The position numbers and the translations under genes were made by a program. Positions 1 through 62,417 of a stretch of 64,000 nucleotides of DNA are shown here, piece after piece; positions within the stretch are counted from its first letter, which is position 1; every line of letters begins with the position of its first letter. The DNA is from Candidatus Yanofskybacteria bacterium RIFCSPLOWO2_01_FULL_42_49 (GTDB lineage: Bacteria > Patescibacteriota > Minisyncoccia > 2-02-FULL-40-12 > GWA2-44-9). The stretch lies in the NCBI GenBank assembly GCA_001795615.1, contig MGKI01000011.1:44996-108995 (forward strand). The letters are read 5' to 3'. The notes under the pieces are model-generated. The model did no database searches, was not told the origin of the DNA, and saw only the letters and a program-made list of their open reading frames with translations.

Positions 1-3000
1 CTTGACGATGAAGTTGAACGCCCCCGTGCCGATATTGTCTTCCTGTTGAAGCGAAGTCCCGCTCCCCCATTGTCCCGAAGCCGCTTTTGCCATTAACTCT
101 TCAGCCGTCATCGATAGCGACGCATATCTGACATCAAGCTTGAGCTCAGGATTCGCCATCCCGATGCCGGGGTTGCCGCTGCTTGTGCCGACAACAACAT
201 TCACTATTTTGTTGCTACCCTTTCTGCTCATTAGATTTCTTAATTCCACTTCGAATCCGCCGTCTGAAGTTTCATTGAATTCATAATTAAATTCGTTGAG
301 TACCCGTCCGATGACCTGTTTATATTGATATGGCTGAATGTTTTCAGACGGTACAGCTACGGCCAAACCGTCGTTCCTGCCAGACGGCATTACATAATCT
401 CCTTCCTTGAATTCGCCTTTCAATAGTACGGGGACTTGTCCTACATAAGCAACAACAATCCATTCTTTGTCATTGTCCCTCGGTGTATCCATTGAATTGC
501 CGCCGCGTATCCCTGACTTTGAAGAAGTCAACATGTAAAACGTCGCGTCATTTGTATCTTTGGTGACCTTCCCGTTCTTGATGCCAACAACTTCAAACGG
601 CAATATCTCTTCATTAGGGTCCAGCTTCTTCATCCATTCGGCATAGTCAACAGCTGCAGTTTCCCAACCATCATCATTTTGCGCAGATGCGTCTACCCTG
701 AAGAGGATTTGATTATCGCCCCCATCGTACCATATCAAATTTCCTGCAGCTTGTTGGGCTTGTTGCCATTTCAATACTCCATTTATATAAAAACCGATCT
801 GTGATTCATCATTTGCGTTACTCGAGTCAATCCGCAGATTTGCCGTAGTCCCGGAAGCGCTCTTTATATGAAGTTGCGTTCCCGGTGCCGTCGTCCCGAT
901 GCCGACGTTGCCGTCGTCTTGTATTCTTATTTTTTCAGCGCTTGGGTCAGCTCCGGAAGATGTTCCAACCGTAAATGTAAAATCACCATCATTTGTACCG
1001 ATAGCCCAATTACGTGCAGAGGCATGAGGGTTCGTAATCCAAATATCCGCAACACTGCTGATTGAATATCGACTTGTAAATTTGGCTACCGTTCCTGCTG
1101 AATCACCACGATCAACATGAAGCGGTGCCCCTGGCCCCGTCGTCCCGATGCCGACGTTGCCGGATTTTACGAAAAGCGTGTTAGACAATGATGCCGGTCC
1201 CTGGAAAGCAAGGGAACCGACGCCGTAAAGGTCGCCGGACACAAGAAGGTCGTTTGAGGTTGTTATCCAGTTTGATGCGGGGCCGGAGATGGTTGAAGTA
1301 CCGAAACGATTGTAGCTGACTGTTGCATATCCTCCAACCTGCAATGTGTTACCAAATAATCCGTAAGATGCACTGGCCGTGCCTTGGACTTCAAAGACAG
1401 TTGACGGGGCGGCGCCAAGACCAATCTTGAAGCCGGCGCGGTTAATGGTCAGATCGGCATCCAGGGTCATCGAGTTCACAAACTCATCAAAGTCCAGAGA
1501 GTTGGAAGCGACTCCGGCTGTGGCCCAGGTAAGAGCGCCTGAACTATTGGTCTGGAGGAATTGGTTGGCTGAACCGTCAGCCGAAGGCCAAGTGTATCTA
1601 ATACCATTAAGAGAGGTGACGCCTGAGATAGAAGCCACGCCTCCAAATGAGACCGTGCCTCTTACTTCAAGGTCGCCGCTTATCAGCAAATCATTGCTTG
1701 CGGAGATGTAATTTGAGTGACCCGTAGTTGCCGTCCCGAATCTTGAATAGGCGGCTGATGAGAATCCCCCGACTTGGAGTGTATTGCCGGTTAAGAGGTA
1801 GGAGGCGCTTGCCGTGCCTTGAAACTCGGCTCTGTCGTCGATGGTGAGTATGCCATCAGCCGTGATTAAACCGATGCCGGTTAAGGCTCCTGTGTTAGAT
1901 ATATCCCAATCATTGGTATTGATTTCTCCCGTATCTCCATTGTCTCCAAGAACGAATCTGCCCGCGATCTGGAAGTTGCTTGAAATACTGGCTTTGCCGT
2001 CAAAGAAGGCGTTGCCGTCGATTTCAAGGGCTCCGGAGATGAGAAGATCGTCAAATTTATCAACATTCGAAGAATAGCCGGTCGTGTTAATACCCAATCT
2101 TGAATATGAAGTTGTCGCTGTTGAAAAGCCAAGGGCAAAGTTAAAGCCCGATGAAGCAGTAAGGAGTCCGGTCTGCTGATCGACGGTCAGCGTGGTCTGA
2201 CTGTTCGGGTTCCTGATTCTGAATACATCCTGAGCCTGTGAAGAAGAAGCGTTAATCAAAAGAGAGAAGTTGGTCAATGAGTACGGATAAACGGTGCCGG
2301 TCATTTTGATGATATCCGTCTGGGCATCACCTAAACGAGAATTGCCTTCAACATTCAAGTCGCCAGTGATGTCGGTTGTTGACTGGACTGTTGTTCCGGA
2401 AAGAGTCAGGTTGCCGGCCACAAAAACATCCCCTTCGGCATCAACTACAAATTTGGGAGAAGTGTTGTTGACATAGGCGATGACATTGCCGTCGGCCACG
2501 GGAGAGGAGGGATTAACATAAAATGTGGCGTTGTCGGTATTAGTAAAATTGGGCCAAGTTCCGCCATGGGCTTGGGTGGGATTCCTTGTTGCCGTAAGCC
2601 GTCCCGTGAACGAACCGCTTCCGATGACGGTAAGTTCGGCGCTAGTGTTGGATGTGCCGATACCGATGTCACCGAAGACATAGAGATTGCCTGATATACT
2701 GGCTACTCCTCCAAACGAAGCCGTGCCTCGGGTTTCAAGATCGCCACTTATCAATAAATCATTGCTCGCCGAAATGTAATTGGCATGGCCCGTGGTTGAC
2801 GTGCCGAACCTTGAATAGCTGGCTGATGAGAAGCCTCCGACTTGAAGGGTATTGCCGGTTAAGAAGTAGGAGGCGGAAGCCGTGCCTTGGACTTCAAATT
2901 TAGTTTGAGGGGTAGTGGTATTAACGCCAACATTGCCTCCAGAAAGAACAGTGAATTTTGTATTAACATCCAATAAGCCCGCGGGTCCCGTAGTCCCAAT

Positions 3001-5775: not shown

Positions 5776-5984
5776 CACACAGAGTTAACAAAAACTCCAT
5801 GCAGCGCAAAACAACAAGTTGTTAAGGACCAATGAACGAGAGGAATCCCTCTCTAAAATTGGTGTTTTTATCTTCTCGAGAATCACGATAATCACGAGAC
5901 GAGATTCGCGAGAAAACAAATGCTACAGCCAATATATATATTATAACGCGCCTCGACATAGGGGCGCAAGCTCTAAATTTTAAA

Positions 5985-43341: not shown

Positions 43342-45477
<2,136 letters not shown>

Positions 45478-50699: not shown

Positions 50700-51227
50700 T
50701 TATTCAAGCCACAACATCCCTCCGCGCCAGCCGGCGAGAAATTCTTTTTTAGAAACAACGTACCTGTTGCCTCTTTTGCCCGGATACGGATCGGCGATAT
50801 GATAGCCCAAGACAAATGGACCCAGCTTCTTTATTTTTTCTACGATGACCAAATGAGCCGTGTCGGACAAATTAAATTCTTTCAGGACTGAAACCGCAAC
50901 CGGTGATTTTAATATTGACAATTGATTATTGATCATTTTAATCCCCTCTTTTTTCTTTTCCGGGGTGTTGAAAAATTCTTTCTGGAAATTCATGGGTACT
51001 CCATATGAAGCGGCCAGATCCACCAGAGCTTGATGCTTCCAGCCGATATTTTTAATATAGCCGCCGGCATTGAAAGCTTGGCTTAATAAAGTCATAATCG
51101 GGATACTCTGAAATTTCTGATTTTTAAAAACCATCAGCATCTTAATAACACAAATCCCGCACGAGTGCTTGCTCCAACTTTCATCCCCAGCATCGGTAAT
51201 TTGATTTACAAGTTTAACTTCTGCCAT
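50700..51227 (-). CDS. Papain-like cysteine peptidase, C39-like domain.
   Basis: WSKHSCGICVIKMLM (catalytic Cys context of C39-like peptidases) with downstream His. 175 aa. Confidence 0.45.
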   Translation of the reverse strand: MAEVKLVNQITDAGDESWSKHSCGICVIKMLMVFKNQKFQSIPIMTLLSQAFNAGGYIKNIGWKHQALVDLAASYGVPMNFQKEFFNTPEKKKEGIKMINNQLSILKSPVAVSVLKEFNLSDTAHLVIVEKIKKLGPFVLGYHIADPYPGKRGNRYVVSKKEFLAGWRGGMLWLE

Positions 51228-51255
51228 TTATTCGTAATTCTTAATTCATAATTCG

Positions 51256-51801
51256 TTATTCCAGTTCGGGATGCCAATAAATTTTTTCTATTTTACGGGT
51301 GCCATTATAGGTATAGTGATGCTTATGCGGAAACCCTGTGCCTTTGGAATCGTTGCTTATCGCTTCCTGTCCGCTCCAAAAAAATCCAATATGATTGTGA
51401 GGCTCTCCGTCGTGGCCGTCTTTTTTCTCCCAAATTATTACAGCGCCAGGCTTGAGTTCTTTTATTTCGTACCAACCATTTTCAAGCAAATCTTTTTCGG
51501 TTGAAACGACGGTAAGGTGGATGTATTTAATCCAATGTTTCTTGCCCGTAAACTCCAACAGTGGGTTGAATGAGTAAAGAATGGACGACACCATAACCGC
51601 GCAGGAGTTCCTGCCGTTTTCAAGCGAATCTTCGATTTCCCCGCCCGCCCCGTAGTGTGATTTCGATTTATCTTTGCCGGAGGCATTCGAAATCTCTACT
51701 TCGGGGTGTTTTTCCACATAAAAATTCCTGAACAAATGGTTCTCGCCTTTTGCGGAATTTTCGATTTGAGTTAAATAATTTTTTTTTAACAACAACCTCA
51801 T
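51256..51801 (-). CDS. CHAP/NlpC-P60-like cysteine peptidase (putative cell-wall hydrolase). Carries the 65-nt in-frame palindromic insertion also present in gatB.
   Basis: NSCAVMVSSIL…GW…KPGAVIIW…HIGFFWSG Cys/His arrangement. Insertion is PEVEISNASGKDKSKSHYGAGG. Confidence 0.5.
   Translation of the reverse strand: MRLLLKKNYLTQIENSAKGENHLFRNFYVEKHPEVEISNASGKDKSKSHYGAGGEIEDSLENGRNSCAVMVSSILYSFNPLLEFTGKKHWIKYIHLTVVSTEKDLLENGWYEIKELKPGAVIIWEKKDGHDGEPHNHIGFFWSGQEAISNDSKGTGFPHKHHYTYNGTRKIEKIYWHPELE
51641..51704. repeat. 65-nt imperfect palindromic element, second copy, in frame in the CHAP-like peptidase gene.
   Basis: ccgcccgccccgtagtgtgatttcgatttatctttgccggaggcattcgaaatctctacttcgggg. Identical to the gatB copy apart from 3 nt and one codon. 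Confidence 0.8.
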
Positions 51802-51902
51802 ACTGATTAAAATTACTAAAACCTCGCCAGCGCGTCAATCAAACGTAAAGGGCATCTTTACAAAATGTAAAGATGCCCTTTACGCTACTAGCTTTAAATC
51901 TT

Positions 51903-53264
51903 TTACGGCTCGCAGGTTACTGTATATGTATAGGTGGCGGGGCCGGTGAGATTACCGGTTGAACGAGAGTTATCTGTTCCAGCCCAACCAGTTGGTGAAA
52001 CAGTACATTGAGATACATTTTGGGAGGACCAGTTGACTTTTGCGGAAGAATTATACGGGATTGAAGAAGGTTCGCAAGTTATTGAAACCGAAGGCTCTAA
52101 AACAGGAACTGTTGTTTGGGCAGTAGGGCTTGTTCCCCCCGGTCCGGTGCAAGTCAAAGTGTATGTTTGAGATGAAGTCAATGGTAGCGTGGTTCTTCTG
52201 GATAGAGGCACACCATTGGACGATGTTTCCACTGGTCCCTGCCAACCGGTTGTAGTGCCGCCGGCGGTACAGGAAGTGGCATCGGTTGAAGACCAAGTCA
52301 AAACAGAAGTACCGTTATATCGGACACTAGCCGGAGAAGCAGAAATAGATGCGGTCGGCCGAGCTGGCTGAATTACCGCAACTGACCTTTCTTTAAGATC
52401 CGACCCTCCGGGTCCTTCGCATCTGACTCCAAAAGTAGTCGGATCAGCGGTCAGACCGCCCGTAGTGGTTGAAGAGTACCCGCTGGTACCAAGCCACTGT
52501 CCGCTCCAAGTGGGCCAGTTACCCGTACCCCAACAGCCGGTTACATTACCACTGACTGACCACGAAACCGTAACATTTTCCCCCCTGTTAACCCTTGACG
52601 GACTGACGGAAACAGAAACCGACGGAGGCGATGGTTCTTGAACCTTAACCGTTGTACTGGCCAAAGTCGATCCGCCTGATGAATTATAGCAAGTTATATC
52701 ATAAGTTTTAGTTATGGTTAAATTTCCGGTCGTTGTGTCATAATTAGCAGGAATCTGGACTCCTTGCGGGCTCCAGTTTTGGCCAGTGACACAATAACTG
52801 GCATTGGAACGAACATGAAGACCTGTGGATGTGTTGTATGGGATCGAAGAAGAATCAGGATAGAAATTGACGGTCGGAGGTGGCTGGTTTTGGTTCCATG
52901 TCACATAATAACCCCTTTCTTTGCCGTTTCTATTAGACACCCAGCCTTCTGGATCTACTTTATTAAAAGTGTAGCCTGGTACAGAATTTAAGTCTACTAT
53001 AATAGTCCAATCTCCTTCTTCCATGCCGTACCAATAATAACGGACGGAATACGAACCCCACTGGTTAAGGCATTGATACCAGCTGTCTTCCCTATACCCC
53101 GAAGGGGTTTCCCCTTTGGCCATTAAAGTGTAGCAAAAATTGGGCACGTTGCCGCTGATAGTAACTCCTCCCGGGTTATACGCTTTTGCGTCCTCGGCCA
53201 GCATAAAAAAACAGGCTAAAATAAAGGTTGTAAAAACAATCAGTTTTAGTTTCATTTTATTCAT
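51903..53264 (-). CDS. Secreted/surface protein with signal peptide and three to four tandem Ig-like beta-sandwich repeats, Ser/Thr/Gly-rich.
   Basis: MNKMKLKLIVFTTFILACFFMLAEDAKA signal. Repeated …PS-x-S-x-S-x-SP-x-V-x3-(N/T)-x-(V/L)-x-W-S-(S/V)-x5-C… modules. Confidence 0.6.
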   Translation of the reverse strand: MNKMKLKLIVFTTFILACFFMLAEDAKAYNPGGVTISGNVPNFCYTLMAKGETPSGYREDSWYQCLNQWGSYSVRYYWYGMEEGDWTIIVDLNSVPGYTFNKVDPEGWVSNRNGKERGYYVTWNQNQPPPTVNFYPDSSSIPYNTSTGLHVRSNASYCVTGQNWSPQGVQIPANYDTTTGNLTITKTYDITCYNSSGGSTLASTTVKVQEPSPPSVSVSVSPSRVNRGENVTVSWSVSGNVTGCWGTGNWPTWSGQWLGTSGYSSTTTGGLTADPTTFGVRCEGPGGSDLKERSVAVIQPARPTASISASPASVRYNGTSVLTWSSTDATSCTAGGTTTGWQGPVETSSNGVPLSRRTTLPLTSSQTYTLTCTGPGGTSPTAQTTVPVLEPSVSITCEPSSIPYNSSAKVNWSSQNVSQCTVSPTGWAGTDNSRSTGNLTGPATYTYTVTCEP

Positions 53265-53637
53265 TTATCAAAATTATTTTTTTGGCTATAAATCTACCGT
53301 CCGATGAAACTTCATACTCAGCTGAAATAATTGAACCTTCCGTTATTTTTGAAATTTCTTCCAAAACAAGTTCTCCATAACCGGGAAGAGTTTTATTTAC
53401 CAAAGTTTGATCATTGTAATAAATTGCTGCCTCCTGATTTTGCCCGGCTTTGTTGGTTGATAAATCAACTGAACCAGCCCGGATGACGATTCTCCCTTCA
53501 TTTATTGAGATAATCTCTCCCGAAACAAACGAGAAACTCTCGTTTTGGTTGTTACTCTGTAAATTAAAGTACCAAACCATGCCCGCACCAATAAGGGTTA
53601 AGATCATAATTATAATTGTAATTCTTTTGACTTTCAT
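53257..53637 (-). CDS. Small N-terminally membrane-anchored protein, paralog of 56264..56680.
   Basis: MKVKRITIIIMILTLIGAGMVWYF TM helix, then …GEIISINEGRIVIRAG…, similar to …GRIIEIKENSIVVSG… of the paralog. Overlaps its downstream partner by 8 nt. Confidence 0.5.
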   Translation of the reverse strand: MKVKRITIIIMILTLIGAGMVWYFNLQSNNQNESFSFVSGEIISINEGRIVIRAGSVDLSTNKAGQNQEAAIYYNDQTLVNKTLPGYGELVLEEISKITEGSIISAEYEVSSDGRFIAKKIILINE

Positions 53638-53670
53638 ATCACATTTTAGAATTTTTCCCAGTCGAAGTCT

Positions 53671-56289
53671 TTATCTTGGAGCTATTTCTTTCCACAGCGG
53701 AATTGATTTTTGAATAAGTATCGGCCCCTTTGTCCTGGCGCAGGATTGGTTTGCGTTATCTGTCGCTGTAAGGGTTACATAATATGTTCCTTCTCCAACA
53801 TAAGTATGGGACGGGTTCTGTTGCGCCGATGATCCGCCGTCGCCAAATGTCCAACTCCATAGCCGGCCGTTCGGATTACCGCCAAATACGGTTTGATCAG
53901 TAAACTGTACAGGATTGTTTAAAGGAGGGTTGGGTGGCGACCAACTAAAATCGACTTGAGGATAAGCATAATTCGGAGTTTTCCAGCTAGAACCAGTCAT
54001 CCAGTTTGACACCCTATCAAAACCGTTCCAAACCCTAACTCTGGCCCGATAAGTAACATTGAATTGCAGAATACCCTGGCCGGTAAAATAAGATTTAGAA
54101 CCGGAAATTATCTTGCCGGTGTCAACTTCCGGACTGTCAAATGAGCCCTTGTCGTCGATTTGGACCTGATAAGCCGACTGGGGACCACCACCGGGGTCGC
54201 TGTAAGTCCAGCCAACCGTCGCCGCCGGCCCCGATATACAGTAGTTGGGCTCGGTGACGGTAATATCAGATACTGAAGGGATAGAAGGCGGCGGGGGATC
54301 AACGGTTACGGTGCAAAAATCGCTTACTGGTCCGGGTGGAGGCGGTGGTGGAGGAGCAGCATTATTATTAACACGAATGTTGACAGTATAAGATGTCGTA
54401 TTCCCGGCGTTGTCTGTGGCCCTGACAGTAATTGTATGCGACCCATTGCTTACCGTAGCTGAATCCCATATATAGGTATAGCCCACAAAAGGACATCCGG
54501 TCCTAAAGCCTCCTGCAGCAGTACAAGCATCTCTCCTGTCAGTATTTCCATATGAATTGTTGTTAACCAAAACCGAGTCAACAAATATATCTACCATGGA
54601 AACTGGCCCCTCATCAGCATTCCAGTAATCAAGGGCCCATCCTCCCACAACAACACTGCCTGAAAGGTTGGCGCCGTTTTGCGGAGCATCTAGCGCTAAT
54701 GTCGGCGGGTTACCTACCGGTAGCGGTGGTGGAAGAGAATCAACTACTACAGTAGCAGAACATGTCCTGATTGACCCGGCACTATTTACAACTGTTAGCA
54801 CACAGGTTTGCGAATCAGGTACAATATCTATTTCTCCATTTGGGCTAATGAATGTTCCTGAACCGATACTCCCCCTACCACAATCAAAAGGAATATACCC
54901 ATCAACATCATTAGACGAACTCCATGATAAATTACTTGATTCGCCGGAGTTTATATTTGATGGGAAAAAATTGGCAACACAAGTTGCATCGCTCGGTTGT
55001 GGTGGAGGCGGTGACGATGGAGGCGGTGACGATGGAGGCGGTGACGATGGAGGCGGTGACGATGGAGGCGGCGGCGGTAGGGCTCCGCTGATAAAATCAG
55101 CGGTAACGGTTCTATCGGCATTCATCGTAACACTACATTGGTTGCCGCTTGAACTGTCGCATCCCGACCAGGCCGTTACGAAACCGCTATCTGGGATGGC
55201 ATCAAGAGAAACATTGGTACCATCCGGGTAACTCTCGGTACAGTCGGATCCGCAACTTATACCGGGGCCGGAAACGCTTCCGTTGGCTCCGCGGTTAACA
55301 TCCAGATTATAATTGCCCGGAGGCGAAGGAGGCACAGACGAAGAACAGTTCCCGCCAAACGCAACATTATCAGCGTCCGTTGTGCCAGCACTGTTTTTGG
55401 CTATTACAAAATAGTAAAGGTCCACATCTTGAATGGGACTGTCAACAGTATAATCGGTGCCTCCAATGTTAGTGGCTATAGTCCTCCAGCTCCCACCTAA
55501 CCATTGCTTTTCTAATAGATCATAGAGGGTTGCATTAGCCGAAGAACCCCAGCTTATATCTATATACTGGGAACCATCGCCTCTGGTTTGGCAACTTGAA
55601 TTATTCATACTAAAAGGCCCCGGGGAAGGAACATAAACATCAACACTACAATCATCGGATTGGCCAGCACTTGTTACGGTAACGGTTTTTGTTCCGGCAG
55701 TTGAATAAACAGTAGATAAGTTGCTTCCCGTTCCGGATGTCGGAGATCCGTCGGGAGCCGACCAAGAAAAATTCCCGTCACCGTCAGAAGCGCTGAAATT
55801 TACAGTTTGATCGGTACTGGCCGTCTGGCTTGATGGGCTACAGGCAGGAGGCAAGATAGCGGGTTCAATTTCAACAGTCCAGGTCCAGTTAACAGTCGAT
55901 TTAATGCCTTGTATAAAAAAGTCTGTCCACTCTTCCCCTGTCCCGCCGGATAACGTCATCGAATCGGAAAATTGCTGTTGATACCAGGATCTTGTATCAG
56001 CGTCAGTCATCCCTGAACTGTTGCCAATACGAATGGCGACATGCCCTTGGCCGTTGTTAAGACTGCCGCTTATGGTAAAGTTTATCTGTGATGATCTTAT
56101 GTACTCGCCAGGGTCAGCCCATTCTTCTCGTGGTCTAGGATAACAATACTCAAAAGTACTTTGATCAAAATTACAGTAACCACTTTGAACCTGAGTACGT
56201 GCATACGCCCCGTTAAAAATAAAAGGTAGCCCGACCAATACTAAGCCAAAAAATATAAAATTTTTAGTCCTTGAGGATAATGGATTCAT
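53671..56289 (-). CDS. Large secreted surface protein with signal peptide, Ig/FN3-like domains, a (PPPSS)n linker and a C-terminal PKD domain.
   Basis: Signal MNPLSSRTKNFIFFGLVLVGLPFIFNGAYA. PPPPSSPPPSSPPPSSPPPSSPPPP linker. C-terminal WSWTFGDGGSSAQQNPSHTYVGEGTYYVTLTATD (PKD signature). 872 aa. Confidence 0.7.
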   Translation of the reverse strand: MNPLSSRTKNFIFFGLVLVGLPFIFNGAYARTQVQSGYCNFDQSTFEYCYPRPREEWADPGEYIRSSQINFTISGSLNNGQGHVAIRIGNSSGMTDADTRSWYQQQFSDSMTLSGGTGEEWTDFFIQGIKSTVNWTWTVEIEPAILPPACSPSSQTASTDQTVNFSASDGDGNFSWSAPDGSPTSGTGSNLSTVYSTAGTKTVTVTSAGQSDDCSVDVYVPSPGPFSMNNSSCQTRGDGSQYIDISWGSSANATLYDLLEKQWLGGSWRTIATNIGGTDYTVDSPIQDVDLYYFVIAKNSAGTTDADNVAFGGNCSSSVPPSPPGNYNLDVNRGANGSVSGPGISCGSDCTESYPDGTNVSLDAIPDSGFVTAWSGCDSSSGNQCSVTMNADRTVTADFISGALPPPPPSSPPPSSPPPSSPPPSSPPPPQPSDATCVANFFPSNINSGESSNLSWSSSNDVDGYIPFDCGRGSIGSGTFISPNGEIDIVPDSQTCVLTVVNSAGSIRTCSATVVVDSLPPPLPVGNPPTLALDAPQNGANLSGSVVVGGWALDYWNADEGPVSMVDIFVDSVLVNNNSYGNTDRRDACTAAGGFRTGCPFVGYTYIWDSATVSNGSHTITVRATDNAGNTTSYTVNIRVNNNAAPPPPPPPGPVSDFCTVTVDPPPPSIPSVSDITVTEPNYCISGPAATVGWTYSDPGGGPQSAYQVQIDDKGSFDSPEVDTGKIISGSKSYFTGQGILQFNVTYRARVRVWNGFDRVSNWMTGSSWKTPNYAYPQVDFSWSPPNPPLNNPVQFTDQTVFGGNPNGRLWSWTFGDGGSSAQQNPSHTYVGEGTYYVTLTATDNANQSCARTKGPILIQKSIPLWKEIAPR
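55004..55078. repeat. Perfect 15-bp tandem repeat (ggaggcggtgacgat ×4, plus a degenerate unit) encoding the Pro/Ser linker on the minus strand.
   Basis: Seen directly: ggaggcggtgacgatggaggcggtgacgatggaggcggtgacgatggaggcggtgacgatggaggcggcggcggt. Confidence 0.9.
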
Positions 56290-56680
56290 AATTTATGTAT
56301 AAAGCGGTAGCTTCGTTGACGGTAAACAAATCTTCGTTGCTTTCAACTCTTAAAATTCTAACGTTGGTATTATTCATTAAGTCAGAAAGTGAACCATCTG
56401 CCATCTCTGGAGGAGTAATCTTGTTGGCCAAACTGATAACAGTGATGCTTTTTTTAAATACAGTTTCAGGTGTAATTCTGAATTCAACCGTTCTTTCCTG
56501 TCGATACTCGTCTCCTGATTTTAACGACCTCGCCATTCCTGAAACAACAATCGAGTTTTCCTTAATTTCAATAATTCTTCCATACATCCAGTACATATTT
56601 TTGTCCTGATTGAAAAAGTAGAATAAAAATATTCCTAAAATTAAAACGATGAATCCCAAAATCCACACCTTTTTATTCAT
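56264..56680 (-). CDS. Small N-terminally membrane-anchored protein, paralog of 53257..53637.
   Basis: MNKKVWILGFIVLILGIFLFYFF TM helix. Overlaps the start of the PKD protein by 26 nt. Confidence 0.5.
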   Translation of the reverse strand: MNKKVWILGFIVLILGIFLFYFFNQDKNMYWMYGRIIEIKENSIVVSGMARSLKSGDEYRQERTVEFRITPETVFKKSITVISLANKITPPEMADGSLSDLMNNTNVRILRVESNEDLFTVNEATALYINYESIILKD

Positions 56681-56732
56681 ACTGACATTATATCATATCA
56701 AATTCCTGGGGCTAAAAAGTTATAAACAAAAA

Positions 56733-56752
56733 GGGCCGACCACGGTCAGCCC
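56733..56752. terminator. Rho-independent terminator (gggccgacc-ac-ggtcagccc plus T-run on the minus strand) after the GC-rich lipoprotein gene.
   Basis: Minus strand reads ggaagggctgaccgtggtcggccctttttgtttat. Confidence 0.6.
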
Positions 56753-56762
56753 TTCCCTTCCC

Positions 56763-57398
56763 CTACTCCGATGTTCTAAGAAATGTCACCTCCCATTCTA
56801 GCACCTGATGCGACAGTACATTCCTCAAAGCGCTAATAAGAATGGGGGGTTTTGTTTCGGGGGCGCTAGGAGGGAACCCCCGAAATACAAGCACGTGAAC
56901 GAAGCTGAAGGTGGTATCTTGTCTTACTGATACCCCCACCGCCAGAGTCGCTGGATTCTCTTGTCTCCAGTCTCCAACCCTCCTAACCCACTGACCACCG
57001 AATCCGTGTGTGAGCACATCTCTCTCTTGAGAGACTGCCGTAACTACGCCCACATACTCCGAATCCGACATACCGTCGAACAAGAGCCAGACTGTCAACA
57101 AGGCTATCTGGCCTTTCTCGATAACTCCACCATTCGGGGTTATCATCTGAATCCTCTGAATTTCAGCGGTACCACCCCCGGGTGAAGGCGAAGTGGGTCC
57201 GCTATCGCACCCGGCAAGGACAAGCCCCGCCAGCGCGATCAGCATCACGGCCAAAATCGGCCACAGATCGACGAACACGAACTTCGTGTTGCCGATACGT
57301 CGAATGGCGAATCCCGCCGAAGAGCGTCGTGCACGAGTTGCCCCAAAAGTCATTGTTCTTCTCCTTGTTGTCGAGCTTGACTCGACAGTAAATGTCAA
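56763..57398 (-). CDS. Putative lipoprotein (lipobox LAGC) in a GC-rich (about 55% versus about 40%) island. Likely start is the internal M at 57353.
   Basis: …RRIGNTKFVFVDLWPILAVMLIALAGLVLAGCDSGPTSPSPGGG signal plus lipobox. Local GC is clearly above the flanks. Has its own terminator. Confidence 0.5.
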   Translation of the reverse strand: MTFTVESSSTTRRRTMTFGATRARRSSAGFAIRRIGNTKFVFVDLWPILAVMLIALAGLVLAGCDSGPTSPSPGGGTAEIQRIQMITPNGGVIEKGQIALLTVWLLFDGMSDSEYVGVVTAVSQERDVLTHGFGGQWVRRVGDWRQENPATLAVGVSVRQDTTFSFVHVLVFRGFPPSAPETKPPILISALRNVLSHQVLEWEVTFLRTSE

Positions 57399-57497
57399 CG
57401 ATCGATCCTTACATCTTAATCATACCATAAAACACCCACAAAAGTCAAGCAAAAAATTCCTAGGAATTTTGGATATGAAAACGGCCTTATCGGGCCG

Positions 57498-58454
57498 TTA
57501 CTTTAGCTTAATTCTCAAAAGCAACTGAACAGAGGAAGGGCTGTTTTTAAACAAGAGCTCATCTTCTCTGTCAAAATTAAAACGCCCCTTCAACACAAAT
57601 CTTAGTCTGTCTGCGCGCAATAGCGGAACCGCCTCCAAAGATCCCTCCGCCGCAAGATCGTCGAATCTGTTTAGTCCATATGTATTTTCATCCCAGAACA
57701 TAAAGACTTTTTCGTAAAAACTTTTTTCAACTCGCATTCTATAACTGAACCGTTTCAAAAAATCTATTCTTCCGTCTGTCGCCACAAAAAAGGTTCTGTA
57801 CTGATCGTCATAAAGAGGAAGCGGCCCAACATCTCTAAACGAAGCTATGTAAACCTCCTGGCTTTCGGTCCATATATACCCACCGCCTACCCTTATCGCC
57901 AGATACCTGTCGTTGAGATCTCCAAATTTTGCACCACCCCAGCCTCGACTGCCATAAGACAATCTTTCAAAGTCAGCATTGAACTGAATACCATTGATGA
58001 TCGATAACGCTTTTTCCTGCTCAACAAATCCTCCTATTCCAAATAAAAACCCGCCCAAACTTTCTTCACCGGAAAACTTAAAAGACTTATTGTTTCTTAC
58101 ATTGACGCCATCATCGGAATAAGAAAACCCGCCGGAAACATCAACTGCATAGTCAACCCCTTCAAATCTTACACTTGGATTGGGCCAAACCACCGAAATT
58201 TGATCCTCCCAAGGATCTCTCAATGTTCCAAGGTTGACAGACCTATCCTGAATCCTGCCTATATCCACACTTCTTTCAAAAGGAAGAAGTGGGATATCCA
58301 AAAAAATGGCTTTCTTTTTTTTGACCTTAACAGGTTCGGACGGTTGGGAAGGTTGATCAGCCACAACCGGTTCCGGCTCTTTTTCCTGAGCAAGGACACT
58401 CGAACCCGAAAAAATTAAAAACATAGCAAAAACTAAGCACAACCCCTGCTTCAT
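57498..58454 (-). CDS. Secreted hypothetical protein (signal peptide; Gly/aromatic-rich).
   Basis: MKQGLCLVFAMFLIFSGSSVLAQE signal. Terminator aacggccttatcgggccgtt overlaps the stop. 318 aa. Confidence 0.55.
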   Translation of the reverse strand: MKQGLCLVFAMFLIFSGSSVLAQEKEPEPVVADQPSQPSEPVKVKKKKAIFLDIPLLPFERSVDIGRIQDRSVNLGTLRDPWEDQISVVWPNPSVRFEGVDYAVDVSGGFSYSDDGVNVRNNKSFKFSGEESLGGFLFGIGGFVEQEKALSIINGIQFNADFERLSYGSRGWGGAKFGDLNDRYLAIRVGGGYIWTESQEVYIASFRDVGPLPLYDDQYRTFFVATDGRIDFLKRFSYRMRVEKSFYEKVFMFWDENTYGLNRFDDLAAEGSLEAVPLLRADRLRFVLKGRFNFDREDELLFKNSPSSVQLLLRIKLK

Positions 58455-58549
58455 TAGACTTCCTTTTAAAGAGCTATGCCCCTAGAGTTAACATTTGATG
58501 CCTGAAAAATCAAATCCCGTACCATGGTACGGGAATAAAAATGTTATCT

Positions 58550-59782
58550 TTACCGGAAAAAATTTCGAAGTATTTCCAGTCTAACTGTGCCGCAACCCAC
58601 GAACCGGCCGGGCGCATCCCTGGTCTCAGACAAACATTGAGATTCAATCACCGCTGCCCCCTCCGGAAGCTCACTATAAATAACAAACGGTCCGCTATCA
58701 TAGATACGACGCGTCATGCCATCTTTGATCAGCTCGGCATGAAGCTCAACTTCTCCTCTTTCTCTAGCATACATAACTGTTTTGTCTGGTCTATTCGCTA
58801 TTTTGGAGTCGTCGTAAGCTGCCTGAAATGTCGGAATAATCAAATATCTCTTTCCGGCAGATTGAGAAAGTCCGTCTAAATATCTCCTCCAACTGTAAGA
58901 ATTGCGGGCATATTCGTGAATTCTGGCCACATAACTTTTAGTGTCGTCTGCCAGCGAGTAGTCCATAAATCCGTCCAAGCTTTTTATTCTGTTTTTATCA
59001 TCCTCTCTTTCGGGAAAAGCCCGCATTCCTTCCGAACCGATAAAAAACACGGGGTAATCTTTTTTCGCTTCTTCAAGAAGACTAGCAAAATCTCCAACCA
59101 TCTGTATCGATGACCACATATATATAACGGCTCGACCGTTTACGGTGACATATCTCGACTGATAGGGCATAATCACATTTTTAAACATAAAATCTATATC
59201 TTCCTTAAACACTTGGCGATTGCGCGGATCATTCATGTTTTTTGGTCCGCCGTCTGAAGGATTATACCTGGTACCGTAGATATGCTCGTAGAGAAGAAAG
59301 AATGGCCCGCATCCACTGGCAAAATTATTGCTTAACCAGTAATTGTGATCATAGTGACTGGGGTTGGGGTTATACTCAAGAACAGCCGCTCCGCCACCAA
59401 ACTCTTTGATCTGCCGGCATTGTTCCATAACTTGAAAGGGCGAAGGTCTTTGATTGGGAGTCCAAAGCCGTGAAATCGGATGAACCGCAGCTTCATGTGG
59501 AGAATAGTCCCACGGATAAGTGTTAGCAAACCAGCCTTGAATTGTTGTCAGTTCAACGCCGCCAATCACACTGGGGGTGCTTAAGGCCATCTCCGAAGCG
59601 GAAGTAACACCCAAAATATCACCCGCAATTTCTTTGGCTTCATCGATAGGATTTGCCGCATCACCCCGGTTTTCTGTCGAAACAGAAGACGGACTTAGGG
59701 GAAATGTCTCGTCACAACTTTCGCAGCCCGGAATAGACGATACGGCAAGCACAAATACTGACATCATGACAGACTTATACAT
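58550..59782 (-). CDS. Putative lipoprotein (…SSIPGC), possibly a glycoside-hydrolase-like TIM-barrel enzyme.
   Basis: MYKSVMMSVFVLAVSSIPGCESC lipobox. 410 aa. No confident family assignment. Confidence 0.4.
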   Translation of the reverse strand: MYKSVMMSVFVLAVSSIPGCESCDETFPLSPSSVSTENRGDAANPIDEAKEIAGDILGVTSASEMALSTPSVIGGVELTTIQGWFANTYPWDYSPHEAAVHPISRLWTPNQRPSPFQVMEQCRQIKEFGGGAAVLEYNPNPSHYDHNYWLSNNFASGCGPFFLLYEHIYGTRYNPSDGGPKNMNDPRNRQVFKEDIDFMFKNVIMPYQSRYVTVNGRAVIYMWSSIQMVGDFASLLEEAKKDYPVFFIGSEGMRAFPEREDDKNRIKSLDGFMDYSLADDTKSYVARIHEYARNSYSWRRYLDGLSQSAGKRYLIIPTFQAAYDDSKIANRPDKTVMYARERGEVELHAELIKDGMTRRIYDSGPFVIYSELPEGAAVIESQCLSETRDAPGRFVGCGTVRLEILRNFFR

Positions 59783-60589: not shown

Positions 60590-61141
60590 ATGAACAACCA
60601 CGGAAAAGTTATTTTTATAGAGGGGATATGGGGCAGTGGAAAGACGGCCCTTGTTAAAGTACTCAAAAAATCTTTAGACGGGAGAACTGTAACTCTAAAA
60701 GAACCCAATCACCTTACCAGTCTTAAAAAGGCTTCCCCCGAAAAAATCACGAACTGGTATCTTCGGGCCCACCACAAAAACATTCGAAGAGCCATCAGCT
60801 TGTCGAGCGATAACGACACCGTACTGACAGAGCGCTCCCCTATTTCCTCAATATCTTTTATGCGGGCCTATCTTAACAAAGACTCGAGGGGTTTAGAAAA
60901 GAATATGATCCGTCTGGAAACCGAGCTTGGCCGAATATTAAAATTAACCGGCAAAAAGGCGGTCATCGTTTATCTCAACCACAACCTAGACAGGACCTTG
61001 GCAAAATTGCATTCTAAAGCACACCTTAAACACCTAGACTCAGTCGACTCGCTTATGATCCTTGCTAAAAGCACGAGAGAATTTTTAGCAAGATTAAACA
61101 AGAGGGGCATAATAGACTTAATAATTTTAAAAAATGAGTAG
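60590..61141 (+). CDS. Deoxynucleoside-kinase-like P-loop NTPase.
   Basis: VIFIEGIWGSGKTALVKVL Walker A, and ERSPISS (dNK-like ERS motif). Start taken at MNNHGK. Confidence 0.5.
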   Translation: MNNHGKVIFIEGIWGSGKTALVKVLKKSLDGRTVTLKEPNHLTSLKKASPEKITNWYLRAHHKNIRRAISLSSDNDTVLTERSPISSISFMRAYLNKDSRGLEKNMIRLETELGRILKLTGKKAVIVYLNHNLDRTLAKLHSKAHLKHLDSVDSLMILAKSTREFLARLNKRGIIDLIILKNE

Positions 61142-62417
61142 CGAAATAATTTTATATTCTGCGTCAGCTTTCTTTGTGTTTCTGGGACTTTTGAATTCTT
61201 TTAAGGTCTCCCATTCGCTGGCCCACATCAAAAAACAGCAAAAGAATCTTGCGGCCAAAAAAGCAGAATACTGCCCGGATGTTTTTGTGCTTATCCCTGT
61301 CCTTAGAGAAGCAAAAATTATAGGAAACTCCCTCGAAAATTTTTCCCGGTTAAAGTACCCCGCAGACAAGCTTAATATCGTTGTGGTAACGACTGAAAAA
61401 GAGCACGAGACTTTCTCCGAGCCGGATACCCCAGAAGTCGTCAAAACCAAAATAACTTTACTTAATAAGAGGCTCGAAAGAGAAGCTTTTCTGCATATCC
61501 ACTATCCTAATAAAGACGGGGTTAAATCTGACCAGCTAAACTATGCGATAGAAAAGCTTTCTCAAAAATTTCCGTCGCGTTTTCAAGACAATACTTACAT
61601 CGGAGTCTACGACGCCGATTCGTCCACAAACGACGATGTCATTGAGTTGCTAGCCGCAGATGGTTCCGTTAACGGCTGGGCCGACGCTTATCAGCAACCG
61701 ACGCTATATATCAAGAATCATCCCGGTGGAAATATTTTGGCTGGTTCTTTTTCATTACTGCAAACTGCTTTTGCTTTTTACCACGAAAACTACAACCTCA
61801 TCACCGCTTCAAAAATGCGCTATCTTATCGGACACGGTTTATTTGTTAAATGGTCTTCGTTAAAAGAAGCCGGACTTTTCCCTACACCGGTAGAAGATAC
61901 CCGCCTGGGTCACATTTTTTCATATCTAAAAAAGGATATCCGTCTCCTTCCGTCTTTTGATACCGTAGAAACTGCTCCGAGAATAACGGCCAGGATAAGA
62001 CAGGCGTCGGTGTGGTTTATCGGAGAGAGTTATTTCTGGATGGATCGGAAAATAGCTACAAAAATTAAACCTATTCCAAGTTTACGGATACTTTGGCTGG
62101 GAACATATAAACTTTATAGAAACGCGGTCTGGATGTTTCGTGGTGGAATTTTATTGATACTACTGGCTTTGTTGATTTATAAATTCGGCCCGATTGCGCT
62201 CCTGCCTCCCCTAATCTACCTGACATTACCGATTGTCATACTCATATCTAAACTTGACCAGATAAATGTGAGCTGGCCGAAAATATTATTTTCTCTTCTT
62301 CTTTCACCGGTAGAATTTTTATTCATGTCTCTGGGGCCGCTAGTCGGATTTATAAAAACAAGCATCTTCAGATCTGACAATAAAAATTTCTTGTTTCCCA
62401 AGACAGAAAGAGTGTGA
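61134..62417 (+). CDS. Membrane glycosyltransferase family 2 (processive synthase-like; multiple C-terminal TM helices).
   Basis: VLIPVLREAKIIGNSLEN…VVVTTEKE…YDADSS GT2 motifs plus C-terminal TM helices. 427 aa. Confidence 0.65.
   Translation: MSSEIILYSASAFFVFLGLLNSFKVSHSLAHIKKQQKNLAAKKAEYCPDVFVLIPVLREAKIIGNSLENFSRLKYPADKLNIVVVTTEKEHETFSEPDTPEVVKTKITLLNKRLEREAFLHIHYPNKDGVKSDQLNYAIEKLSQKFPSRFQDNTYIGVYDADSSTNDDVIELLAADGSVNGWADAYQQPTLYIKNHPGGNILAGSFSLLQTAFAFYHENYNLITASKMRYLIGHGLFVKWSSLKEAGLFPTPVEDTRLGHIFSYLKKDIRLLPSFDTVETAPRITARIRQASVWFIGESYFWMDRKIATKIKPIPSLRILWLGTYKLYRNAVWMFRGGILLILLALLIYKFGPIALLPPLIYLTLPIVILISKLDQINVSWPKILFSLLLSPVEFLFMSLGPLVGFIKTSIFRSDNKNFLFPKTERV

Follow-up and report, generated by a model that had tools for sequence, protein, structure and literature searches.

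Gene Organization of the Region

The window, by which we mean the entire 64,000-nucleotide stretch of DNA that was analysed, is part of a contig of Candidatus Yanofskybacteria from the Rifle aquifer. All nine minus-strand reading frames that a preliminary description of this DNA had placed between positions 50700 and 59782 were found there. In the direction of transcription, the block starts with p9 (58550-59782; 410 aa), a predicted lipoprotein, and p8 (57498-58454; 318 aa), a predicted secreted protein in which a signal peptide is combined with a K/E/P-rich linker. A terminator-like hairpin is predicted after p9 (58534-58515, minus strand), and a promoter-like site is present 5' of p7 (57448-57419, minus strand). 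The gene for p7 (56763-57398; a 211-aa reading frame) encodes a GC-rich predicted lipoprotein and is the first member of a three-gene cassette; it is followed by p6 (56264-56680; 138 aa), which we also refer to as small A, and by p5 (53671-56289; 872 aa), a secreted modular Ig-like protein. A second small-large pair consists of p4 (small B; 53257-53637; 126 aa) and p3 (51903-53264; 453 aa), the latter a secreted protein with Cys-containing Ig-like repeats. As had been described before, the starts of the large genes overlap the preceding small genes, by 26 nt for p6/p5 and by 8 nt for p4/p3. The block ends with two genes for papain-fold cysteine hydrolases, p2 (51256-51801; 181 aa) and p1 (50700-51227; 175 aa). 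Between p3 and p2 lies a terminator-like hairpin (51844-51884, minus strand) that comprises a perfect 19-bp inverted repeat with the loop TTT followed by TTTGATTG; RNA folding yielded a dG of -32.8 kcal/mol and a z-score of -7.8.

Hydropathy analysis revealed a hydrophobic N-terminal segment in seven of the nine proteins. Each of the cassette proteins possesses such an N-terminal signal and lacks a second transmembrane segment. The exceptions are p1 and p2, for which the absence of a signal peptide was judged by a hydropathy heuristic: the maximal N-terminal 15-residue hydropathy is -0.21 in p2 and 1.37 in p1, where it coincides with the helix bearing the catalytic Cys, and the N-termini are conserved and hydrophilic in the alignments of both families. 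Since p1 and p2 have neither a signal peptide nor a hydrophobic N-terminus, the 9-kb block as a whole cannot be designated a secretome, as the preliminary description had done.

The Lipoproteins p7 and p9 and the Secreted Protein p8

Both p7 and p9 carry the hallmark of bacterial lipoproteins, a hydrophobic signal followed by a lipobox of the pattern [LVI][ASTVI][GAS]C, and the two lipoproteins proposed for this region from its sequence are thus well founded as predictions. The lipobox of p7 (LAGC) comprises residues 61-64 of the 211-aa reading frame, with Cys64 as the candidate lipidated residue; the true start of the protein is probably later than that of the reading frame, within which codons 16, 41, 49, 51 and 52 provide alternatives. 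With a GC content of 0.533, as compared to 0.43 for the window, the p7 gene is indeed GC-rich. A phmmer comparison related p7 to the lipoprotein encoded ahead of the small protein in a locus outside the Yanofskybacteria (L057; E 2e-8), while membership in the lipoprotein family that holds the same position in other Yanofskybacteria was not detectable (9.9 bits).

The lipobox of p9 (IPGC) comprises residues 17-20, with Cys20, and reads VPGC in an orthologue. No match to p9 was found in Pfam, NCBIfam or the PDB, yet orthologues are encoded at the corresponding place in L002 (74% identity) and L030; in five other loci, this place is taken by an unrelated 313-aa lipoprotein. The p8 protein, for which Pfam and the PDB likewise gave no match, belongs to a family found at the same position in seven Yanofskybacteria loci. 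It had been described as a secreted Gly/aromatic-rich protein; the N-terminal hydrophobic segment bears out the first part of this description, while its composition (8.8% Gly, 8.8% Phe) justifies the second part only mildly. Both p8 and p9 are probably further components of the cell envelope.

A Family of Small Proteins with an N-Terminal Membrane Anchor

The proposal that the two small proteins are paralogous was borne out by a pairwise BLASTP comparison of p4 and p6 (E 5e-5) and by a family HMM built with the sequences from the window left out, against which p6 scored 83 bits and p4, the divergent paralogue, 28.7 bits (E 6e-10). The ectodomain of p4 alone still scored 11.4 bits (E 3.7e-5), with the match confined to its first half. 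The family comprises 90 cluster representatives, nearly all of them 135-190 aa in length, and has no match in Pfam or NCBIfam. An AF2 model with a pLDDT of 94 predicts an N-terminal transmembrane helix (residues 3-23 in p6) and an eight-strand beta domain, and p4 likewise combines a transmembrane anchor with a predicted beta ectodomain. In the public JGI gene call, the first small protein is only 110 aa long and lacks the transmembrane helix; the longer reading frame is the better one, because this helix is conserved in the homologues. The small proteins therefore represent one real, previously unannotated family with an N-terminal anchor.

Sequence identity within the family is low (17-37%), and conservation in the ectodomain is limited to Gly, Phe, Thr, Asp and Tyr residues of a structural kind and includes none with a functional role. 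These properties bear on the idea that the small proteins might be dedicated chaperones for export or folding, or inhibitors of premature adhesion, which would act transiently at the membrane and would not be part of the final structure. Such a role would fit the overlapping stop/start coupling, which is conserved in many loci and would allow joint production of the small and the large protein; the small proteins diverge fast, and so do the variable regions of the large ones, and one cassette adjoins SecDF. Yet our search for a chaperone-like family or motif in the small proteins detected none, and the model depicts the ectodomain as a stable, confidently predicted beta domain whose conserved residues appear to be structural only. 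The present results fit such a transient function as well as that of an anchor; we regard the transient function as rather unlikely.

The Small-Large Gene Pair Is Conserved in Different Genomic Contexts

Among 15 Yanofskybacteria loci, nine have the small and the large gene directly adjoining or overlapping each other; in the other six, the two are not adjacent and are separated only by a lipoprotein gene. Of the 16 giant-bearing loci in which the upstream region could be viewed in full, 12 carry a member of the small family, as opposed to none of the seven loci that lack a giant. Within the Yanofskybacteria, this adjacency carries little weight on its own, because the whole region is syntenic there. 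The pairing recurs, however, in five unrelated genomic contexts (the L052 to L057 set), with gaps of -41 to +9 nt between the small and the large gene. In three of these (L053, L054 and L057), the cassette precedes genes for type IV pilus proteins, and in L055 it precedes SecD/SecF; L056 represents yet another context, and the contig of L052 is short. The preliminary description had proposed the small proteins as candidate dedicated chaperones or anchors, an idea that would fail if they were not conserved together with the giants; they are in fact conserved beside these both in Yanofskybacteria and in five other contexts. In the window and in L053, L054 and L057, the small gene comes after a lipoprotein gene. 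Since the lipoprotein is usually encoded first, the functional unit appears to consist of a lipoprotein, a small anchored protein and a large Ig-like protein, a conserved arrangement that had not been annotated.

The neighborhood of pilus genes raises the question whether the cassette serves as an accessory to type IV pili, with the lipoprotein and the small protein as assembly or alignment components and the large protein as a pilus-associated adhesin. Among the five independent contexts outside the Yanofskybacteria for which flanking sequence exists, three (L053, L054, L057) have the cassette on the same strand as, and directly upstream of, genes for PilB (MshEN/T2SSE), PilC (T2SSF) and N_methyl pilins. 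In type IV pilus systems, PilP together with PilN/PilO represents a lipoprotein paired with small bitopic proteins, and the combination encoded by the cassette may be analogous. There is also a precedent in Saccharibacteria, whose episymbiosis is reported to be mediated by type IV pili (10.1101/2024.11.25.624915). No pilus genes were present among the reading frames scanned in the window. In this reading, the cassette would have moved away from the pilus operon in Yanofskybacteria. We consider this explanation about as doubtful as a chaperone role of the small proteins.

The Large Proteins Combine Variable Regions with a Constant C-Terminal Module

The p5 protein contains several domains recognized by Pfam: PKD (67 bits; 1.2e-18), PKD_4 (66 bits), Ig_Rha78A_N (37.5 bits), Flg_new_2 (36.6 bits) and Big_7 (25.2 bits). 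From the N- to the C-terminus, a signal peptide is followed by a variable head, PKD, an FN3-like domain, Flg_new_2, an SSPPP linker, an Ig-like domain, Big_7 and a constant C-terminal module. The linker is encoded by a perfect tandem repeat (55003-55071, minus strand; 15-bp unit, 4.6 copies, 100% matches in Tandem Repeats Finder). The constant module (residues 641-872; 53674-54369, minus strand) is made up of a poly-Pro linker, the FN3-like Ig_Rha78A_N domain (686-771), PKD (789-853) and a terminal tail. Conservation of p5 is confined to these last ~230 aa, which are 45-49% identical to the giants of L002, L004 and L006; outside the FN3-PKD module, the giants are variable. In about 30 of the 42 loci, the constant module is encoded just ahead of p2.

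Conservation of the giant is highest at its near-invariant extreme C-terminus (KSIPLWKEIAPR; 53674-53709, minus strand), a candidate sorting or anchoring signal that the preliminary description had not mentioned. Its consensus, ..QK[PA]IPxW[KR]E[VI]AP[RK]*, was found at the very end of 28 of the 312 long reading frames in the fetched loci, and every one of these 28 encodes a giant adjoining p2. Related tails (P[NQK]F[RE]EF* and FDYMEF*) close the large partners in L053, L054, L055 and L057, while in L012, L021 and L024 the large protein adjoining the small one lacks the tail. Neither an LPXTG-type sortase signal nor a C-terminal transmembrane sorting signal was found in p5, which ends in ...IQKSIPLWKEIAPR with no hydrophobic stretch; outside the N-terminus, its maximal 19-residue hydropathy is 1.18. 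We also found no docking domain shared by the N-terminal heads of the large partners, which are heterogeneous. Because the small proteins are poorly conserved and the C-terminal module of the giants is well conserved, a small protein is unlikely to serve as the receptor for this module.

The p3 protein is of a different make. Both large proteins had been referred to as giant Ig/PKD proteins, a designation that the Pfam domains justify for p5, but not for the 453-aa p3 protein, for which Pfam and PDB searches gave no match and revealed no Ig or PKD domain. The similarity of p3 is confined to its repeats, which match variable regions of the giants of other species in L011 (1.7e-37), L029 and L014; the constant C-terminal module and the tail are missing. 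No positional orthologue of the p4-p3 pair is present in L002, L004 or L006, and this additional pair is peculiar to the present genome.

Two Papain-Fold Hydrolases without Export Signals Adjoin the Cassette

The p2 protein represents a Paceibacteria-wide, unannotated family with the papain-like alpha+beta fold common to NlpC/P60 and CHAP enzymes of solved structure. The putative catalytic residues C67 and H137 are invariant among 30 sequences, as are N150, H161 and H177, which are candidates for the third polar residue, and the family has a conserved N-terminal helix motif (KKNYLxxIENSAKGENxMFRNFY). No match to p2 itself above threshold was obtained in Pfam or NCBIfam; 12 of 30 homologues match NLPC_P60 weakly (best E 0.0019), four of 30 match CHAP (5.9e-4), and the sole match of the family profile in the PDB is 7cfl (E 0.066). 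The assignment of p2 as a CHAP/NlpC-like peptidase is thus supported by the fold and by the invariant Cys and His as putative catalytic residues, but not by the curated Pfam thresholds. The p1 protein had been called C39-like. By itself, it scores 18.5 bits against PF03412, short of the gathering cut-off of 22 and with a match in its C-terminal half only, yet among the 22 members of its family 13 match PF13529 (best 1.2e-11), five PF03412 (1.3e-06) and two C70. Q9, C23, H125 and D146 are invariant in all 22 and occur in canonical order; in accordance with clan CA in general, we take the Gln to be the oxyanion residue and assign the roles of Cys, His and Asp likewise. The p1 family profile did not match any solved structure. 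No ABC transporter was encountered among the genes called ~10 kb to either side of p1; those found there are guaB, p2 and genes for surface proteins, kinases and aminoacyl-tRNA synthetases. An informal look at the proteins neighboring p1 brought no double-glycine leader to our attention.

Could the entire block constitute one toolkit, as originally proposed? The hydrolases would then either process or release the giant in the manner of LapG and LapA, link its tail to the wall as a sortase would, or cleave peptidoglycan of the host or of the cell itself at the attachment site. In about 30 of the 42 loci, p2 directly follows a tail-bearing giant whose stop codon lies within ~40-250 nt, a spacing that could reflect a functional link of p2/p1 to the constant tail; p1 comes after p2 in about 22 loci. 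Conservation within the giant peaks in the tail, as would be expected of a recognition signal, and the folds of p2 and p1 are those of peptidoglycan endopeptidases and of leader-cleaving C39 peptidases, respectively. However, a protein exported by Sec has its tail outside the cell, whereas p1 and p2 lack export signals, a finding that also speaks against their assumed role in cell-wall remodelling. A tightly packed p2-pheS-p1 cluster with no giant is present in three distant Paceibacteria loci (L038, L040, L041). Conversely, the cassettes in L053 to L057 include neither p1 nor p2, although their large proteins keep a tail-like C-terminus. In addition, the strong hairpin separates p3 from p2, and with synteny across the clade, the adjacency may be merely inherited. 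We therefore hold a joint function of the hydrolases and the surface proteins to be improbable, even more so than a role of the cassette as an accessory to pili.

Discussion

The explanation that we favor, with a probability of roughly 55%, is that the region consists of a surface-protein cassette (p7 to p3) and an adjacent, separate pair of hydrolases, and that the large protein is held at the cell surface by the small protein, the lipoprotein, or both. The small protein would span the membrane with its single N-terminal helix and expose an OB-like beta domain of ~110 aa outside the cell, and its gene would be translationally coupled to that of the large protein via the overlapping stop and start codons. 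The large protein would be exported by Sec but would itself carry no anchor for the membrane or the wall, and the membrane-tethered small protein and/or the lipoprotein would hold or assemble it at the surface. Its variable head and stalk would point outward and bind the host, while the constant FN3-PKD-tail module would represent the envelope-facing end. Taken together, the cassette probably builds a structure for attachment to a host. Of this picture, the gene structures, protein families, folds, conserved adjacency and lack of export signals are direct results, whereas retention of the large protein by the small protein or lipoprotein, binding of a host and the function of the tail are deduced. 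In the same reading, p2 and p1 would be a cytoplasmic papain-fold pair that belongs to a guaB/pheS housekeeping neighborhood in Paceibacteria; they adjoin the cassette because this gene order is shared among Yanofskybacteria, rather than by virtue of a demonstrated common function.

A Yanofskyibacterium has been observed in experiments as a parasite that attaches to Methanothrix, and its most highly expressed genes include those for signal-peptide proteins with Ig-like folds; more generally, archaea-parasitising Paceibacteria highly express signal-peptide proteins with Ig-like or PKD domains (PMC10936435). The p5 protein thus stems from a lineage known to live as attached parasites.

Among known systems, the closest to p2 are the NlpC/P60 (C40) and CHAP hydrolases, such as the Thermus thermophilus enzyme (4xcm), LytE, CwlO, MepS and phage endolysins. 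Unlike these, p2 has no signal peptide or wall-binding domain, remains below the Pfam threshold, and has its own N-terminal helix motif and a housekeeping neighborhood (pheS, guaB). The p1 family resembles the Peptidase_C39_2/C39 leader peptidases (ComA, PCAT1) in its matches to PF13529/PF03412 and in the retention of the Gln-Cys-His-Asp set, but p1 is a stand-alone protein of 175 aa with no ABC exporter among the genes called beside it. The position of a gene for a papain-superfamily cysteine protease next to that of a large repeat adhesin recalls the LapA-LapG system. LapG is a periplasmic enzyme that cleaves the N-terminal retention module of an adhesin exported by a type I secretion system (T1SS); in contrast, p1 and p2 have no export signal, other lineages encode them without any giant, and the genes examined include no LapD-like regulator.

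For the small proteins, the closest known counterparts are small extracytoplasmic OB-fold proteins (the BOF family members YgiW and YobA, and CusF/SilF). The resemblance of the beta domain to the OB-fold is weak, and searches for membership in DUF5666 or the bacterial OB-fold (BOF) family gave no profile match and no clear structural match.

The p5 protein is best compared to the large modular Ig-like/PKD/FN3 surface adhesins of bacteria, for example the stalk adhesins of the Bap/SiiE/LapA type and the signal-peptide proteins of archaea-parasitising Paceibacteria mentioned above. What it shares with this group is its make-up as a Sec-signal protein of PKD, FN3-like, Big_7 and InlB-B-repeat beads, with Pro-rich linkers, a variable head and a constant base. 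It differs from them in the lack of a T1SS signal, an LPXTG motif, a C-terminal transmembrane segment and a known wall-binding domain. Instead, this putative adhesin possesses the lineage-specific terminal tail IPxWKEVAPR, through which, we infer, its envelope-facing end may be sorted or anchored.

Organization of the minus-strand gene block

The nine open reading frames of the preliminary description were all recovered, with unchanged coordinates, on the minus strand of the window: p1 (50700-51227; 175 aa), p2 (51256-51801; 181 aa), p3 (51903-53264; 453 aa), p4 (small B; 53257-53637; 126 aa), p5 (53671-56289; 872 aa), p6 (small A; 56264-56680; 138 aa), p7 (56763-57398; 211 aa), p8 (57498-58454; 318 aa), and p9 (58550-59782; 410 aa). 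Read from p9 toward guaB, successive genes are spaced by 95, 99, 82, -26, 33, -8, 101, 28, and 67 nt. Hence, both small genes overlap the start of the next large gene, as had been claimed, p6 that of p5 by 26 nt and p4 that of p3 by 8 nt.

A hydropathy and lipobox scan of the nine proteins revealed an N-terminal hydrophobic segment in each of p3 to p9; hydropathy showed no such segment in p1 and p2, and no second transmembrane (TM) segment in any of the nine. Lipoboxes are present in p7 (LAGC) and p9 (IPGC). The GC richness ascribed to p7 holds (0.533 vs. 0.43 for the window), and its true start probably lies later than the TTG codon of the 211-aa reading frame. Pfam and NCBIfam contain no model for the small-protein, p2, p8, or p9 families, and direct profile or PDB searches with p1, p2, p3, p8, and p9 brought up no useful match.

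A perfect 19-bp inverted repeat with a 3-nt loop (51844-51884), followed by UUUGAUUG, lies within the 101 nt that separate p3 from p2; the corresponding RNA fold has a dG of -32.8 kcal/mol (z -7.8). A terminator-like hairpin is also present 3' of p9. The p3-p2 hairpin is missing from the listing of the consensus terminator scan, and the counts of promoter-like and terminator-like consensus matches were not above those in shuffled sequence; among regulatory signals, we cite only individually strong hairpins. The block is probably transcribed in the units p9, p8, p7 to p3, and p2-p1(-guaB).

Three further observations concern genes outside the block. A 427-aa multi-pass membrane protein without a Pfam match is encoded on the plus strand (61134-62417) and keeps its relative position in L001, the public JGI contig of the same region, which stems from a Rifle-aquifer metagenome (sample 3300002105); the 427-aa reading frame of the related locus L002 (2501-3784) is the orthologue of p9 and not this membrane protein. 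The gyrB gene of a related Yanofskybacteria genome (L006, 15557-18940; product of 1127 aa) carries an intein (PF14890), and that of the window (43342-45444; 700 aa) does not. At the start of the window, a minus-strand frame (1-5786) shows no stop over 1928 codons or more and continues beyond the edge, a further very large protein gene that coincides with the higher GC content (0.48-0.49) of the first 4 kb.

The small proteins form a family

The proposed relationship between the two small proteins was borne out by pairwise BLASTP (23% identity, E 5e-5) and by a family HMM made without window sequences, against which p6 scores 83 bits (E 1e-26) and p4 28.7 bits (E 6e-10); the ectodomain of p4 alone reaches 11.4 bits, in its first half only. 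A word-indexed search for homologues of p6 returned only p6 itself. Three syntenic loci encode an N-anchored protein of 153-174 aa whose gene overlaps the start of a giant, i.e., a large secreted Ig-like/PKD protein, and the first family HMM was built from such reading frames in syntenic loci. This first HMM found 15 members among 42 species-representative loci; when 1.84 billion representatives were searched exhaustively with HMMER, 90 relatives were obtained at E <= 1e-3, nearly all of 135-190 aa. Two long repeat proteins among the HMMER matches, P0162 (an array of PKD domains) and P0195 (an array of DUF4430), probably reflect summed weak matches and were left out of use. A presumed link between the small proteins and DUF5666 was not upheld: no match was found at E <= 1 except one at 0.06.

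In the public JGI gene call (L001, 9694-10026), small A starts at Met29 and comprises 110 aa, so that its TM helix is lost (window positions 56596-56680). Since this helix is kept in homologues, the public annotation is probably N-terminally truncated.

Small and large genes remain paired in unrelated contexts

In nine of 15 Yanofskybacteria loci, a large reading frame with a signal peptide directly follows the small gene or overlaps it; in the other six, a lipoprotein gene (about 160-200 aa) lies between small and large genes. L012, like the window, contains two small-to-large pairs. Where 7 kb or more of upstream sequence was available, members of the small family occur in 12 of the 16 loci with a giant vs. 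none of the seven without one. The Yanofskybacteria loci share flanking housekeeping genes, and the pairing there could thus be inherited synteny; we therefore turned to less closely related members of the family whose genes have different surroundings.

In L053, a lipoprotein gene and a small gene precede, with a gap of 4 nt, the gene for a 656-aa protein, and PilB, PilC, and pilins follow. The same order, with PilB, PilC, and a pilin following, is found in L054 (855-aa protein, overlap of 41 nt, then a 172-aa protein) and L057 (575-aa protein, overlap of 8 nt, then a 169-aa protein). The small gene of L055 precedes that for a 580-aa protein (gap of 9 nt), then SecD and SecF; in L056, it overlaps the gene for a 473-aa protein by 17 nt, with a separate FN3-PKD-tail reading frame further on; and on the short contig L052, a large reading frame overlaps it by 26 nt. 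This adjacency shows the pairing to be independent of context, so that its conservation does not reflect Yanofskybacteria synteny alone. Moreover, p7 matches the lipoprotein of L057 (E 2e-8), which points to a three-gene unit. When p7 was compared with the lipoprotein family at the same position in other Yanofskybacteria, it scored 9.9 bits only and was not accepted as a member.

In these other Paceibacteria, a complete type IV pilus gene set lies directly downstream of the cassette in L053 (11426-16901), L054 (10325-16254), and L057 (3899-9424); besides PilB, PilC, and an N_methyl pilin, it includes two additional pilin-like reading frames. In L054 and L057, the large protein is separated from PilB by another N-anchored protein, of about 170 aa. 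A less likely rival explanation makes the cassette an accessory module of the type IV pilus; the pilus genes of L053, L054, and L057 speak for it.

Giants combine variable heads with a constant C-terminus

Pfam matches of p5 comprise PKD (two stretches), PKD_4, Ig_Rha78A_N (FN3-like), Flg_new_2, and Big_7. Within p5, a perfect 15-bp tandem repeat (55003-55071; 4.6 copies, 100% identity) encodes an SSPPP linker; given the identity of its copies, it may be a recent expansion, and the length of the linker may vary among strains. No match to p3 was found in Pfam or PDB; its Cys-containing repeats match repeats within the variable regions of giants of other species (L011, 1.7e-37; L029, 4.5e-34; L014, 4e-27). 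BLAST detected no similarity between p3 and p5, and neither a DNA-level duplication nor flanking repeats were found that would account for the extra p4-p3 pair. We looked for an N-terminal docking domain common to the large partners and found none; one head family spans seven loci, and both p5 and p3 fall outside it.

Conservation of p5 is confined to its last ~230 residues (45-49% identity to the giants of L002, L004, and L006). This C-terminal module, an FN3-PKD region with a terminal tail, recurs in about 30 loci, while heads and stalks differ. Such a pattern, hypervariable at the head and constant at the base, would be compatible with diversification of the head driven by the host. Conservation of the giants is highest at the extreme C-terminus: the motif ..QK[PA]IPxW[KR]E[VI]AP[RK], running to the stop codon, ends 28 of the 312 long reading frames of the fetched loci, and all 28 are giants adjoining p2. 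Related tails (PNFREF, PQFEEF, FDYMEF, and PKFEEF) are found on the large partners of L053, L054, L055, and L057. No hydrophobic segment follows the tail, which rules out an LPXTG-type or exosortase-type signal. The tail is absent from p3 and from the large protein directly 3' of the small gene in L012, L021, and L024; these tail-less partners make it unlikely that the small protein is the receptor for the tail.

In L056 (9677-11901), the FN3-PKD-tail region is a separate 281-aa reading frame with its own hydrophobic N-terminus, located after one of 458 aa, and similar short tail-bearing proteins (316-337 aa) are encoded in L016 and L021. The constant module can thus exist as a stand-alone protein.

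The sharply conserved tail is a candidate sorting signal. A far-reaching proposal would combine the tail (IPxW[KR]E[VI]AP[RK]; PxFxEF in other Paceibacteria) and the FN3-PKD module into an undescribed Patescibacteria-specific signal for surface sorting or anchoring, with an apparatus for its assembly or anchoring that would comprise the lipoprotein and the small, OB-like protein of the membrane and might be linked to type IV pilus machinery, and with the signal-less NlpC/P60-like and C39-like enzymes as its potential processing enzymes. Taken jointly, we consider these elements improbable; if true, they would give ultrasmall monoderm bacteria a novel means of presenting proteins that bind the host.

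The hydrolases p2 and p1 are separable from the cassette

For p2, 341 homologues were retrieved from across Paceibacteria, and no Pfam domain is present in any of them; C67, H137, N150, H161, and H177 are invariant in the family, the N-terminus is conserved and hydrophilic, and members match NLPC_P60 and CHAP only weakly. Relative to most aligned homologues, p2 carries an insert of ~21 residues, PEVEISNASGKDKSKSHYGAG, at residues ~32-52 that is predicted to be disordered (pLDDT about 50). For p1, an identical protein is assigned by NCBI to Candidatus Yanofskybacteria RIFCSPLOWO2_01_FULL, and 38 homologues were found, with Q9, C23, H125, and D146 invariant; 13 of 22 family members match Peptidase_C39_2 (best E 1.2e-11), and p1 of the window itself scores 18.5 bits, under the cut-off of 22. 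Of the two secreted peptidases initially envisaged, the fold assignments stand, but both proteins lack an export signal.

A less likely rival, a unified toolkit that includes the hydrolases, would account for their position beside the cassette and for the tail-bearing giants adjoining p2. However, pheS is located downstream of p2 in nearly all loci, L038, L040, and L041 have overlapping genes in the order p2-pheS-p1 and no giant, p1 and p2 are absent from all six contexts L052-L057, and the hairpin separates p3 from p2. The genomic evidence thus sets the hydrolases apart from the surface cassette. Both look cytoplasmic and housekeeping, and position alone is no basis for annotating them as secreted wall-remodelling enzymes.

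A candidate surface-display cassette

The best-supported reading is a surface-display cassette in which a lipoprotein and a small OB-like protein of bitopic topology accompany a large Ig-like protein of modular build; this cassette adjoins, yet is separable from, the cytoplasmic papain-fold hydrolase pair p2/p1. The small protein or the lipoprotein would tether or assemble the large protein, whose variable head would bind a host. We infer these roles from topology, translational coupling, conserved adjacency, and the documented attached lifestyle of a Yanofskyibacterium. Less probably, the small protein serves as a transient chaperone, a role that translational coupling would also suit.

Patescibacteria live attached to host cells. 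To our knowledge, hardly any attachment proteins have been described for Paceibacteria. One Yanofskyibacterium has been seen to live as a parasite on Methanothrix, to which it is attached, and signal-peptide proteins with Ig-like folds are among its most highly expressed proteins (PMC10936435). The locus described here offers concrete attachment candidates in the form of a three-gene cassette that recurs across lineages and contexts. Since the small-protein, p2, p8, and p9 families are without a Pfam or NCBIfam model, defining them would improve the annotation of CPR genomes.

A literature search retrieved no description of the small-protein family, the p2 family, the three-gene cassette, or the tail. 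The kinds of components are already known, namely a modular adhesin-like protein, accessory envelope proteins, and papain-fold hydrolases; what is new is that both of these families, the arrangement of the three genes, and the tail are unannotated.
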